From Bradymonadia bacterium (GTDB lineage Bacteria > Myxococcota_A > Bradymonadia > UBA7976 > UBA1532), in NCBI GenBank assembly GCA_046290225.1, contig JBKAGE010000078.1, forward strand, positions 416,001 through 480,000: a DNA stretch of 64,000 nucleotides. The letters run 5' to 3'. The first letter of the stretch is position 1. The number at the start of each line of letters is the position of its first letter. The position numbers were made by a program, and so were the translations under genes. Below the pieces are notes generated by a model. That model was not told where the DNA came from, did not search any database, and saw only the letters and a program-made list of their open reading frames with translations. This document shows, one piece after another, positions 2,111 to 54,662 of the stretch.

Positions 2111-3283
2111 TCACATCTGCGTGAGCATCGCCTCCAGCTCCTTGCGCCAGACCGGCTCCTGCGCTTCGAGGACGTGCAGCTCGATCTCGAGCATCTCCAG
2201 GGCCGGGTGGGTCTCCATGCACAGCTCGTCGTGCTCGTCGGGGGTGGCCCCGAAGCCCATGTAACCCGCCAGGGCGTCTGCGAGTGAGATGGCCGACACC
2301 AGCCGTACGTGGTTGAACGACTTCTGAGGCTGATGATGAAACATCGACACCTCGCTGAACGACTCGTCGAAGCCCCACTTCGACAGGAGCGTCGAACCAA
2401 ACTGTCCGTGCAAGCCCGAGATCGTCTTGTCGATCTCTTCCAGTGAAAACTGCCCGCCCATGGGGTGCTCTCGGGCCATGTCGTCGAACATCTGCACCAG
2501 CAACGCTCTGCCGATGTCGTGCAACATGCCATGGAGAAAATAGGTCGGGCCGTGGGCCTCGTCGAGCTCGCCGGCGATGTGTTCGGCGATGAGCGCCGTC
2601 GCCAGGCCGTGGTGCCACAGATCGAGCAGCTCGCCCTGAATGTCGGGTGCGCCGAAGCTGAACAGGCGCTGATTGCAGATCGCCAGCAGATACTTGCTCA
2701 GCTCTCGATAACCGATGCGGACCACAGCCTCGTGCAGATGCTTCGGCGGTCGCCCGCCCCGCGTGTAGAACGAGCTGCTGGCGATGGCCATGATCCGGGT
2801 CGACAGCATCGGATCCGTACGCACCAGATCGATGATGCGGTCGACATCGTGCTCAGGATCGGAGAGCAGCTGATTCAGCGTGATCGTCGTCTGGGGGATG
2901 CTCGGCAGCCGCAGCTCCGAGTTCCGATATCGATCCACCACAGCCTGAATGGGTGATCGCACACCCCGATTGGTGGCGCGACGCAGATCTGCGAGGGCTG
3001 CGGGCTCTGCTTCGGAGTTCTCCTCGATGAGGGCCGCATCGGGCCCTGCGCTGGGGCCAAAGTCGAGCTCGAGGGTGCGGTCCACCCCTTCTTTGAGACC
3101 TGCGAGGTAGATCGACGCAAAGAGTTTGCGCATGGCCTCACGGCCGCCACCGGTGAAGGCGCTCATCAGCCGTTTGGCGAGCTGATCGTCCACCGCTCGA
3201 CTCAAGAGCGTGTCGATGGCCTGCCCCTCGGGGACCACCACCCCTACCCCTCTGTACTGCAGCCGGCCCACCGCCATCTCCAT
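2111..3283 (-). CDS. HDOD-domain signal transduction protein
   Basis: LPSIP, DPMLSTRIMAIASS, AVVRIG, LWHHGLATA, GMLHDIGR, HGQFG...KWGF, HHQP. Start codon uncertain. Confidence 0.85.
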   Translation of the reverse strand: MEMAVGRLQYRGVGVVVPEGQAIDTLLSRAVDDQLAKRLMSAFTGGGREAMRKLFASIYLAGLKEGVDRTLELDFGPSAGPDAALIEENSEAEPAALADLRRATNRGVRSPIQAVVDRYRNSELRLPSIPQTTITLNQLLSDPEHDVDRIIDLVRTDPMLSTRIMAIASSSFYTRGGRPPKHLHEAVVRIGYRELSKYLLAICNQRLFSFGAPDIQGELLDLWHHGLATALIAEHIAGELDEAHGPTYFLHGMLHDIGRALLVQMFDDMAREHPMGGQFSLEEIDKTISGLHGQFGSTLLSKWGFDESFSEVSMFHHQPQKSFNHVRLVSAISLADALAGYMGFGATPDEHDELCMETHPALEMLEIELHVLEAQEPVWRKELEAMLTQM

Positions 3284-3528: not shown

Positions 3529-3544
3529 TGGCACATCTTCTGCA
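3529..3544 (+). promoter_or_regulatory. Putative sigma54 (-24/-12) promoter
   Basis: TGGCAC-ATCTT-CTGCA gives exact GG-N10-GC spacing; the predicted start (~3555) lies just upstream of the riboswitch. Confidence 0.6.
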
Positions 3545-3583
3545 TCCTCTACTTGGCGCATCGTCGAGGTCATGTCGGCCTCG

Positions 3584-3666
3584 GCTCTACGAAATGGCAA
3601 ACCGCCGGCAACGGTGGGACGCAAAGCCAGGGGTCCCATAGGGATAGCCCAGCCATCGAACGGAGC
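3584..3666 (+). ncRNA. c-di-GMP-I (GEMM-I) class riboswitch, variant with G20/A47/U92
   Basis: GGCAAACC...GGGACGCAAAGC core. P2 CCGCCG-GCAA-CGGTGG with GNRA loop; P3 GGG/CCC plus GTCCC-ATA-GGGAT with AG bulge; P1 GCTCT..CG / CG..GGAGC overlaps the RBS of the gene at 3673. Confidence 0.88.
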
Positions 3667-3672
3667 ATTCCC

Positions 3673-4035
3673 ATGCGTCGTGCAGTCAAGAAGGCCGCGA
3701 TCTCCCTCATTTCCACCTTTGCTCTGGTCTGCCTCGGCGGCCAGGCGCTGGCGGCGGACACTGAGACCGTCGAGGATATGCTGGAGGCCGGTGGCCAGGT
3801 GGATTTCAACTTTGAGGTCGATCCCATGTTGGTCCCTCCGACCATCTCGCCCTCTCAGGTGATGACCGTGACCACCACCCGTGAGGGCGACACGGTCAAG
3901 GGTGTGGTGTTGCTGGTAGACGGGCGCAACGTGCCCTTCACCATGACCCACTCCCGGCCTCTCATCCAGGACCAGGCCCCCCGGCACATCGCCGATGGCG
4001 GAGTCCTCGGGGCCGAGGCCATCGCCCAGAACTGA
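3673..4035 (+). CDS. Small secreted hypothetical protein (120 aa), riboswitch-controlled
   Basis: GGAG RBS 7 nt before ATG 3673; signal peptide MRRAVKKAAISLISTFALVCLGGQALA. Confidence 0.75.
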   Translation: MRRAVKKAAISLISTFALVCLGGQALAADTETVEDMLEAGGQVDFNFEVDPMLVPPTISPSQVMTVTTTREGDTVKGVVLLVDGRNVPFTMTHSRPLIQDQAPRHIADGGVLGAEAIAQN

Positions 4036-4131: not shown

Positions 4132-6558
4132 GTGGCCCAATCCAAGTCTCCCGGCCCTCAGGTGCTCCCGCTCGAACAACTGCGGTGGCGGTGTGATCCC
4201 GCCGTTTTTCAGCGCTACCGCAAGGTGAGGGCCAACCGCCCTCACATCATCGGCCAGCCCCGTGCCGTGGAGGCGATCCTCCTGGGCATGGAGATGGAGA
4301 GCCCCGGGTTCAACGTCTTCGTCTGCGGCCCCAGCGGCACGGGGAAGATGTCCACAGTGCGGGCACTCCTCGGCGAGGGCCCCGATCGTCGTCGCCCACT
4401 GCACGATTACGTGTACGTTCACCGCTTCGAGGATGCTGATCGCCCCCGTCTCATTCGGATGAAGGCCGGCGACGGTGCTCGCTTCAAGCGTCAGGTCGAG
4501 GCCTTTGTCGAGGGCCTGCCTGATCTGCTGCCCAAGATCCTCGACTCCGAGGGCGTATTCGGCCGTCGACAGCGCCTCGTGGAGGCCTTTGAGGCGGAGG
4601 AGAACGTCCTCGTATCCGACCTTGAGGTGCAGTGCGAGGAGTCGGGCCTGCAGCTGGCCCAGATTCAGATCGGCGAGGTGGCTCAGCTCGACATCTACGC
4701 GATCCACAAGAAGAAGCCCATCGACATCGAGGAGCTCAACGAGCTCGTGGCCCAGGGCAAGGCCAAGGTACCCCACCTCGAAGAGCTCAACGCACGCCAC
4801 GCCGAGCTCAAAGATGCTCTACGCACTCTGTTGGGCATCCTGCGCAAGCGGGCCCGCAAGCTGCACGACGAGGTACACGCCCTGGAGTCGAAGGCCGTCG
4901 CCGAGGCGCTGGCCCAGACCCTCAAGGAGCTTGAAGAGGACTTCCCCTTCCCCGAAGTCTCCGCCTGGATTGCCGAGGTCCGTGGTGCCATCACCGACGA
5001 TCTCGACGTCTTCAAGGCCGTCGAAGAAGAAGAGGCGCACCCTGAAGCCATCGCCGAGCTGCTGCACCGGCTCAAGGTGAACGTGGTCCTCGACAACCAC
5101 AATCAGAGTGGCACCCCGGTCGTCTTCGAGAACTTCCCCACCTTCACCAACCTGCTGGGCACGATCGAGCGTCCCACGGACGACACCCGGGCCACGGTGG
5201 ACTTCAACCACGTGAAGGGGGGCTCGCTGTTGCGGGCCAACGGTGGCTTCTTGATCCTCAACGCCAACGACGCCGTGGGCGAGGCAGGGGTCTGGCGGGC
5301 GCTGAGCCGCGTGCTCAAGACCCGAGAGCTGCAAATCATGCCCCCGGAGCAGTTCCTGGGCCACGGCAGCATCACCGCCCTGAAGCCCGAGTCGATCAAA
5401 GTCGACGTAAAGGTCATCGCCGTGGGCGATGGCGATCTGTACCGGGCGCTGTACGCCGCCAGCGAGGAGTTCCGTCGCATCTTCAAGATCAAGGCGGACT
5501 TCGACGACGTGATGCCCTGCACAGATCGCGGCCTGGAGCTGTATGCCGATCACTGCTGGCGCGTCACCTCAGAAGAAGGCCTGGTGACCCTCAGCGATCC
5601 TGCTCTGGCCCGTCTGGCCGAGTACGGGGTCCGCCTCGCAGAGCATCAGGGCGAGATCTCCACGCGGTTCAGCGACATCACCGATCTGCTCCGTGAGGCG
5701 AGTCACTACGCCCAGATCGATGAGGACTCAGAGATCTCCGTAGCCCACGTCGAGCGCGCCCTCGAAGCTCGGCGCCATCGCCACGCCCTGCCTCAGGAGC
5801 GCCTGAGCGCCCTCATCGAACGGGGCGTCATCGCCCTCGACGTCACGGGCTCCAGGGTGGGCACCATCAACGGCCTTACCGTGCTCGACCTCGCCGATCA
5901 CTGCTTTGGTCAGCCCTCTCGCATCACCGCGCGGTGCTTCCCAGGACACCGTGGGGTGATCTCCTTGGAGCGCGAGGTGGAGATGTCGGGGCAGATTCAC
6001 GACAAGGGCGTGTTCATCCTCTCGAGCTGGCTCCGGGCCCGATACGCCCCCGACGAGAACGTGGCCCTCTCCGCCACGCTGACCTTCGAGCAGCTCTATG
6101 ACGGCGTCGAGGGCGACAGCGCCTCCCTCGCTGAAGCCCTGGCCCTGTTGTCGGCCCTCACCCGCAGGCCCCTCAGGCAAGACGTCGCGGTCACCGGAGC
6201 GCTGGATCCTCGGGGCGGCATCCGCCCCGTGGGTGGCATCAACGAGAAGATCGAGGGTTTCTTCGACGTGTGTGACCACTTCGGACTCACCGGAGAGCAG
6301 GGTGTGGTCATCCCCCAGAGCAATATTGATCAGCTCATGCTCAAGCCCGAGGTGGTGCACGCCGTGTCAGAAGGGCAGTTCCACATCTGGGCCGCTGATC
6401 ACATCGACGAAGTGCTCGCCCTCACCCTCAACGAGCCGAACATCGGCGCCGAGGATGGCGAGGGCCGATTCCCCGCAGCGTCGTTCAACGCCGCAGTGGG
6501 CGCAGCGCTCTTGAGGATGACCGAGAAAGCAGGCCCCAAGCCCCCAGGAGCTTCATGA
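4132..6558 (+). CDS. Lon-related protease (LonC/LonB-like AAA + S16 domain)
   Basis: IIGQPRA, Walker A GPSGTGK, GSLLRANGGFLIL, SGQIHDKG, catalytic Ser in GDSAS and Lys in GGINEKIEGF. Confidence 0.9.
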   Translation: MAQSKSPGPQVLPLEQLRWRCDPAVFQRYRKVRANRPHIIGQPRAVEAILLGMEMESPGFNVFVCGPSGTGKMSTVRALLGEGPDRRRPLHDYVYVHRFEDADRPRLIRMKAGDGARFKRQVEAFVEGLPDLLPKILDSEGVFGRRQRLVEAFEAEENVLVSDLEVQCEESGLQLAQIQIGEVAQLDIYAIHKKKPIDIEELNELVAQGKAKVPHLEELNARHAELKDALRTLLGILRKRARKLHDEVHALESKAVAEALAQTLKELEEDFPFPEVSAWIAEVRGAITDDLDVFKAVEEEEAHPEAIAELLHRLKVNVVLDNHNQSGTPVVFENFPTFTNLLGTIERPTDDTRATVDFNHVKGGSLLRANGGFLILNANDAVGEAGVWRALSRVLKTRELQIMPPEQFLGHGSITALKPESIKVDVKVIAVGDGDLYRALYAASEEFRRIFKIKADFDDVMPCTDRGLELYADHCWRVTSEEGLVTLSDPALARLAEYGVRLAEHQGEISTRFSDITDLLREASHYAQIDEDSEISVAHVERALEARRHRHALPQERLSALIERGVIALDVTGSRVGTINGLTVLDLADHCFGQPSRITARCFPGHRGVISLEREVEMSGQIHDKGVFILSSWLRARYAPDENVALSATLTFEQLYDGVEGDSASLAEALALLSALTRRPLRQDVAVTGALDPRGGIRPVGGINEKIEGFFDVCDHFGLTGEQGVVIPQSNIDQLMLKPEVVHAVSEGQFHIWAADHIDEVLALTLNEPNIGAEDGEGRFPAASFNAAVGAALLRMTEKAGPKPPGAS

Positions 6559-18178: not shown

Positions 18179-18253
<75 letters not shown>

Positions 18254-54588: not shown

Positions 54589-54662
54589 TGGCTTCGCAGG
54601 GACTCGAACCCCGAACCTAGCGATTATGAGTCGCTCGCTCTAACCAGTTGAGCTACGAAGCC
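54589..54662 (-). tRNA. tRNA with CAT anticodon (elongator Met most likely; Ile2 not excluded); CCA not encoded
   Basis: Acceptor GGCTTCG/CGAAGCC with paired G1-C72 (so not initiator), anticodon arm AGCGA-CTCATAA-TCGCT, TTCGAGT loop. Confidence 0.93.

Follow-up and report, generated by a model that had tools for sequence, protein, structure and literature searches.

A leader at 3584–3666 of the window (the whole stretch of 64,000 nucleotides analysed here) has a c-di-GMP-I (GEMM-I) fold but carries U at position 92, where the consensus is C. In Vc2, G20 reads the alpha guanine of the ligand, whereas C92 forms a pair with the beta guanine, as reported in PMC6140456. Geobacter cGAMP switches use A20, according to PMC5888326. 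GEMM-I matches are assigned to c-di-GMP or cGAMP from position 20 alone. Which ligand, then, would a natural G20/U92 pocket serve, and how would it control the gene behind it?

Overall structure of the leader

The window matches RF01051 (c-di-GMP-I) at 3586–3660 on the + strand, with a cmscan score of 57.5 bits (cut-off 35; E 1.3e-8). The match is full length, covering 87 of 87 model positions (1–87). RF01051 is the top clan match in the E-value scan, from which two weaker overlapping clan matches were excluded. The features of the locus are as follows.

3529–3544 (+): sigma-54-like promoter motif, GG-N10-GC (-24/-12), with a predicted start near 3555
3584–3666 (+): aptamer with c-di-GMP-I (GEMM-I) fold and pocket G20/A47/U92, P1 extended onto the ribosome-binding site (RF01051 and covariation)
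3584–3591 (+): P1 5' strand, in which C13-G14 (3590–3591) pair with 3658/3657
3584–3588 (+): anti-Shine-Dalgarno part of the P1 5' strand, pairs with 3662–3666
3596 (+): G20 (RF01051 alignment), which recognises the alpha guanine by its Hoogsteen edge according to PMC6140456
3602–3617 (+): P2 hairpin with GNRA loop 3608–3611 (RF01051; four of six pairs covary)
3620 (+): C44, pairs with G83 at 3647 (RF01051; invariant in 10 of 10 leaders)
3623 (+): A47, which intercalates between the ligand bases (RF01051; invariant in 10 of 10 leaders)
3626–3653 (+): P3 with a short loop and bulged G83 (3647) (RF01051 and covariation)
3656 (+): U92, the Watson-Crick ligand-reading position, consensus C (RF01051; two independent contigs)
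3662–3665 (+): Shine-Dalgarno sequence GGAG, 7 nt before the ATG (3673), paired by the P1 extension
3673–4035 (+): regulated gene (open reading frame, family-restricted) for a 120-aa protein with a signal-peptide-like N-terminus and a three-stranded beta core

G3596 falls in the G20 column of RF01051, and A3655-T3656-C3657-G3658 is aligned to the consensus g-C-C-g, both with the top posterior class ('*'). T3656 is therefore position 92. The Vc2 pairs, numbered as in PMC11705072 and, including C44/A47, in PMC3764141, have counterparts in the window: G21-C46 and C22-G45 are 3597–3622 and 3598–3621; G50-U89 and C51-G88 are 3626–3653 and 3627–3652; and G14-C93, C13-G94, and C44-G83 are 3591–3657, 3590–3658, and 3620–3647. 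Another register with C at position 92 is excluded by the posterior, and is rejected as well because the G50-89 and G14-C93 pairs enclose exactly three bases. The sequence-only reading had proposed a complete c-di-GMP-I fold with G20 at 3596 and position 92 at T3656; the covariance model gives the same assignment, with U and no C in the 92 column. It had also placed a G50-C89 pair in register. The pair is in register, but Vc2 itself has U89 and U90 (the latter pairing with A48) at the positions of C3653 and C3654.

Covariation was examined in an alignment of the window with eight orthologous leaders and one non-orthologous leader (G026). In this alignment 90% of cells are paired and both partners vary in 12 of 25 pairs, as compared with 26–43% of cells in controls with a slid structure, a lenient control because the tested structure derives from the covariance model and the window sequence. 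In helix 1 (P1), five of seven pairs change on both sides and 77% of cells are paired.

Compared with Vc2 (RF01051; PDB 3IRW/3MXH), the leader has the same three-way junction, G20, A47, C44-G83 and G14-C93 pairs, and GNRA loop on P2, and differs in U92, C89 and C90, a J1/2 of 4 nt, a short P3, and a P1 that runs into the Shine-Dalgarno sequence. G20 and A47 of RF01051 are present (G3596, A3623), but the canonical C92 that pairs with the beta guanine is replaced by T3656. We file the leader as a pocket variant of the RF01051 structural family and not as a canonical c-di-GMP sensor. Two relatives in the same clan, CL00126, come close. The consensus of c-di-GMP-I-UAU (RF03168; U20, A47, U92) has U in the 92 column, but its U20 is G20 in the window, and RF01051 outscores the clan relatives; c-di-GMP-I-GGC (RF03167) has G47, but the window has A3623. 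No separate family for a G-A-U pocket is among the Rfam matches obtained.

J1/2 is one nucleotide shorter than the 5 nt of Vc2, as had been observed from the sequence. However, the short form is also present in seven of the eight C92 orthologous leaders and in 24 of 58 scorable G20/U92 aptamers. The shortness of J1/2 is therefore not tied to U92, and J1/2 is excluded as a co-determinant.

Origin and conservation of U92

The eight orthologous leaders of the family are all G20/C92, as are the host's two other GEMM-I aptamers; beyond these three covariance-model matches, a loose regular-expression scan of the genome gave noise only. With C in every ortholog and both paralogs, T3656 might be taken for a sequencing or assembly error, a reading we consider barely credible. 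Contigs from two other studies keep the same T. A 4456-nt DNA contig (study P1) covers the leader with the gene order of the window, and shows 357 differences from it over 2150 nt in the adjacent Lon gene (~83% identity). A 236-nt contig (study P2) comes from an RNA library, an origin that does not demonstrate transcription. Both are assembled contigs rather than raw reads, with differences listed from 1%; in both, 3656 lies at least 50 bases from the piece ends, and no T>C row is present. Because T is kept in both studies, U92 is not an assembly error.

The aptamer stretch checked in these contigs is ~3609–3675. The differences listed there are the loop bases 3638–3640 and positions 3615 and 3645; the latter two turn G-U into G-C and preserve pairing. 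By comparison, the DNA upstream of 3579 is unalignable between the window and the related contigs. Since the contigs keep T, the stem changes preserve pairing, and the flanks have diverged, U92 is fixed in a small clade, and purifying selection acts on the fold that contains it. As to descent, U92 is derived here, because all eight family orthologs are G20/C92, and by sequence it is one change away from a c-di-GMP-type pocket. Of the observations that were to refute the sequence-only reading, C at position 92 in relatives is seen in part: the eight family orthologs all have it, but the closest relatives keep U.

A search of sequencing runs found no run that holds the window (best share 0.06); three runs contain 5–6% of its words, a share too small to name a habitat. 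In run X2, a contig pair (records 5 and 6) resembles another orthologous leader.

Interactions of P1 with the ribosome-binding site

The aptamer occupies a 5'-leader position, and the Shine-Dalgarno sequence lies within the P1 extension, an arrangement conserved in the orthologs. A start near 3555 is suggested by the sigma-54-like motif at 3529–3544. The genome contains 41 copies of the strict motif (0.00036 per 150 nt), and a looser form (at most two mismatches) is found upstream of six of the eight orthologous leaders.

The 120-aa gene has matches in eight of 40 relatives, all of the same family, and in a ninth by alignment (G007). The riboswitch precedes the gene in eight genomes; one member, G008, keeps the gene, and no aptamer core was found in front of it. 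The protein, which is probably secreted, has no Pfam match, no homolog in a 5.8-billion search, and no Atlas match. Its AlphaFold model (pLDDT 67, pTM 0.42) has no PDB match at E<=0.001.

The effect of the aptamer on the ribosome-binding site was modelled by 2D folding, which has no tertiary or ligand energy. When the aptamer core is forced (bound-like), pairing of the Shine-Dalgarno sequence with P1 goes up in each of the nine leaders with one or both of the assumed starts, and ligand binding is therefore likely to turn translation off. That P1 reaches over the ribosome site with covariation also points to a translational OFF switch. When bound, the leader would likely silence a small, probably secreted protein at the level of translation.

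In the ligand-free ensemble with a start near 3555, U92 raises closure of G14-C93 from 0.13 to 0.64, by pairing of A3592 with U3656 and by an alternative pairing that buries G20. Pairing of the free Shine-Dalgarno sequence with P1 is 0.64 or 0.06, depending on which of two starts is assumed; with the start 21 nt later, the effect of U92 on the Shine-Dalgarno sequence is small. A clearly open Shine-Dalgarno sequence was never seen in the free ensemble in these 2D models.

Such pairing would fit a crippled, mostly ligand-independent switch, in which U92 pairs internally, keeps P1 shut, and damps translation. The internal pairing would be A3592-U3656, or 3594–3597 with 3653–3656; in 2D folding of the free ensemble A15-U92 reaches 0.49 and G20-C3654 0.79, with the Shine-Dalgarno sequence paired. 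The A after G14 is present in 57 of 58 scorable G20/U92 aptamers, but C92 aptamers usually have it as well (14 of 15 scorable). Pockets with G92 (four) and C20 (one) in the phylum hint at relaxed constraint within one clade, and G008 has the gene with no aptamer core found. On the other hand, relatives with unalignable flanks keep ~3609–3675, including C44-G83 and A47, and change stems in a pair-preserving manner. Conserved tertiary bases count against a crippled switch, because a plain hairpin needs none. We consider this reading improbable.

Distribution of G20/U92 aptamers

The U92 pattern occurs in ~660 stretches of GTDB genomes and ~1100 of metagenomes, as estimated from partial scans. 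After a structural filter, 21 of 120 sampled GTDB loci and 39 of 120 sampled metagenome loci are G20/U92; the 78 genome loci and most of the metagenome loci that were dropped are filter failures or C92 with a chance tail. Twenty of 20 genome loci (of the 21) reach the gathering score in the clan, and the 92 column holds U for all eight U92 loci among the 10 Rfam alignments listed. The hosts include Alphaproteobacteria, Actinomycetota, Nitrospirota, Myxococcota, Desulfuromonadales, Rokubacteria, Chloroflexia, Gemmatimonadaceae, and Desulfosporosinus. Scaled up roughly (21/120 of ~660 stretches), this puts U92 in some hundred species-level genomes of GTDB.

When any base was allowed at position 92, 72 matches were obtained in 401 genomes of the window's phylum, probably Myxococcota to judge from the shared aptamer subtype and gene types. 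Of these matches, 58 have C, nine U, four G, and none A; one match (G162) was dropped as chance, so that U92 is found in nine of 71 aptamers, or about one in eight. In 161 Bacillota-type genomes, U92 is found in one of 101 readable aptamers, a count that excludes the centre genome and five rows ending before position 92. The difference is significant when the window's own genome is excluded (8/69 versus 1/101; Fisher p 0.003), in a comparison that ignores kinship. The Nitrospirota sample (19 matches in 151 genomes) holds one U and 13 C among readable aptamers without the centre genome, too few for a rate, and viral contigs have U92 in none of 10 structurally good aptamers (29 loci). Rarity of U92 finds no support, as it recurs at ~1–12% of GEMM-I aptamers in these samples. 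It is conserved between congeneric species at two loci in one pair (G393/G239) and at one locus in another (G356/G149).

A20/C92 (seven) and G92 (four) pockets also occur in the clade where U92 is most abundant. The G92 aptamers, which combine G20 with a purine at the Watson-Crick site, are three loci of one genome (L331, L357, and L358; G166) and one of another (L336; G158). Other odd pockets are C20/C92 (L330) and A20/A92 (L368). These pockets reflect either relaxed constraint or other ligands. Metagenome contigs also carry U20/U92 (UAU-like) and U20/C92 pockets (L095 and L059). At three loci (L085, L129, and L156), a G20/C92 aptamer is followed by a G20/U92 aptamer 177 nt apart, with one gene behind the pair. 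At two others (L066 and L244), a U92 and a C92 aptamer lie ~500–560 nt apart.

Genes behind U92 aptamers

A domain scan of 41 ORFs behind U92 aptamers, including 34 of 53 listed, found PilZ (four), HDOD or EAL-HDOD (five), GGDEF (two), FlgM (one), and type IV pilin (two) genes, as well as adhesin-type domains; three SCPU pilins come in addition. Proteases are also present among these ORFs and a further set of seven. This is the usual c-di-GMP set. A20 cGAMP switches, by comparison, precede cytochrome genes, according to PMC6456294. In 120 genomes of Desulfuromonadia, with the centre genome dropped, the ORFs taken behind 12 U92 aptamers contain no CxxCH motif, and none of the 12 represents a swap of A20/C92 for G20/U92 before a cytochrome gene. 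This search yields no rate for U92, because C92 was not counted there. In three Desulfuromonadia genomes, G20/U92 leaders are conserved before duplicated S8 protease-Ig genes, and in three other genomes they stand before SCPU (Csu-type) pilin genes (loci L373–L375, L377–L379, L366, L367, and L369).

Association with Hypr cyclases

The host genome has 14 GGDEF matches, comprising canonical and Hypr cyclases; one of the 14 has the Hypr signature, which is Ser348 with GGDE[F/Y] according to PMC6456294. It lies at C34:302208–302678 (-), with a receiver-like domain, a GGDEF domain, and the serine (Ser348) 26 residues before the motif aspartate. By this signature, it is a candidate 3',3'-cGAMP synthase. 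The premise that the host can make cGAMP thus gains a predicted cyclase, as would befit a GEMM-Ib host. Of nine family members with the riboswitch that were searched, eight have between one and three Hypr-type genes.

With such a cyclase at hand, the leader might be a dedicated 3',3'-cGAMP sensor in the orientation opposite to GEMM-Ib, with G on G20 and A on U92, recruited into the Hypr pathway. This reading, which is possible but somewhat unlikely, draws on several observations. Neither of the other GEMM-I aptamers in the genome has A20, and the engineered C92U aptamer binds cGAMP according to PMC12032345. Six of seven U92-bearing genomes of the phylum have a Hypr gene, and the seventh has two congeners with one. 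In addition, U92 is kept between congeners, and the structure is under purifying selection with U92. Across the wider sample, the Hypr signature is present in nine of 21 U92 hosts and none of 18 C92 control hosts (p 0.002), in a search with one pattern, with many hosts incomplete bins, kinship ignored, and the controls clumped in few clades. U92 is also commoner in this phylum, where Hypr cyclases are frequent, than in the Bacillota-type sample (8/69 versus 1/101), a comparison likewise confounded by kinship, and the 28 aptamers of eight Hypr-less genomes of the phylum are all C92.

However, the signature is missing in 12 of the 21 hosts, and within the phylum there is no association at the genome level (Hypr in five of six U92 genomes versus 16 of 24 others; Fisher p 0.64) and a p of 0.13 by aptamer (7/40 versus 1/29). 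Moreover, A20/C92 aptamers already exist in the same clade, the downstream genes are of the c-di-GMP type, with no cytochrome genes behind the Desulfuromonadia U92 aptamers, and the orthologs here are G20/C92 rather than A20/C92. Together these points argue against a dedicated cGAMP class as first envisaged. The GEMM-Ib (c-AMP-GMP) riboswitch of Geobacter (Gs1761, A20/C92) shares the scaffold and a host lineage with a Hypr cyclase, but the window has the mirror pocket G20/U92, no cytochrome regulon, and descent from G20/C92 orthologs.

Candidate ligands of the G20/U92 pocket

The closest engineered counterpart is Vc2 C92U (PDB 3MUR; Smith 2010, Shanahan 2011), with the same G20/A47/U92 pocket, a weaker c-di-GMP response, and reported binding of 3',3'-cGAMP, the last as stated in the review PMC12032345 citing Shanahan 2011. 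In V. cholerae, the substitution lowers c-di-GMP-dependent RNA 30-fold, a defect partly rescued by more c-di-GMP in vivo, as described in bioRxiv 617340. The window aptamer differs in that it is natural and under selection, its host encodes a Hypr cyclase, and it has an A next to G14 that could pair with U92 in the free RNA. A literature search found no measured ligand preference for a natural G20/U92 aptamer; its scope lay outside the primary surveys and supplements (Kellenberger 2013/2015, Nelson 2015, Weinberg 2017, Ren 2015, Smith 2010, Shanahan 2011), which may bear on novelty.

We judge the chances about even that the leader is a detuned, probably bispecific c-di-GMP/cGAMP OFF switch. 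The transcript would start near 3555 from the sigma-54 promoter. The ligand would stack on A47, and G20 would read a guanine. U92 would take the other base, either by a G-U wobble (c-di-GMP, weaker) or by an A-U pair (cGAMP), and cGAMP bound in the latter way would be flipped relative to Geobacter A20/C92. Binding would lock G14-C93 and hold the P1 extension on GGAG, which would keep the ribosome off. When no ligand is bound, U92 may pair with A3592, next to G14, which would pre-close P1 and shift the set point further. U92 likely raises the threshold for c-di-GMP, and the switch would accept 3',3'-cGAMP as well; cGAMP could dominate, because an A-U pair chemically fits better than a G-U wobble. 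The option of a low-affinity c-di-GMP sensor, already raised by the sequence-only reading, best fits the comparative data, with binding as a prediction. The best explanation of these patterns would be that U92 has repeatedly retuned ordinary c-di-GMP switches and does not mark a separate cGAMP class.

In principle, the leader could sense a different dinucleotide, either c-di-AMP or a mixed purine-pyrimidine cycle. A DAC domain and a CD-NTase-like gene are encoded in the genome, and the G20A/C92U double mutant binds c-di-AMP according to PMC7288161 and PMC9049102. However, c-di-AMP binding requires A20 too, G20 hydrogen-bonds the O6/N7 edge of guanine (as reported in PMC6140456), and the CD-NTase is located in a defence-like cassette. 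A sensor of this kind is very unlikely. The CD-NTase-like (SMODS) gene (L365 853–1779 (-), G000:C39) is followed by a probable two-helix membrane effector and adjoins a restriction-type cassette, in an arrangement that resembles a CBASS defence system.

By itself the locus is ordinary, a known riboswitch whose pocket variant is real, recurrent, and under selection. It is nevertheless a clean test pair, because U92 and C92 orthologs precede the same gene. If U92 flips specificity, the regulons behind such aptamers carry the wrong annotation, and nature has a second route to cGAMP sensing; if U92 does no more than detune, it is a simple natural dial that sets the threshold and the pre-closure of P1. 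We are doubtful that G20/U92 aptamers form a natural but so far overlooked class of 3',3'-cGAMP sensors with flipped orientation. Were it true, the class would have evolved many times by one C-to-U change and be enriched in lineages with Hypr cyclases, the leader would be the cGAMP receptor of a genome with a Hypr cyclase and no A20 riboswitch, and tandem C92 and U92 pairs would be two-signal gates.

Neighbouring genes

A gene for an HDOD/HD-domain protein (window 2111–3283 (-)) is transcribed away from the leader; HDOD genes are also found behind several U92 aptamers elsewhere. Directly after the regulated gene lies a LonB/LonC-like AAA protease gene (window 4132–6558 (+)), and a related contig in run X1 has the same order, the regulated gene and then a LonB/LonC-like gene. 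The window also contains tRNA genes (RF00005) at 18179–18250 (+) and 54589–54662 (-).
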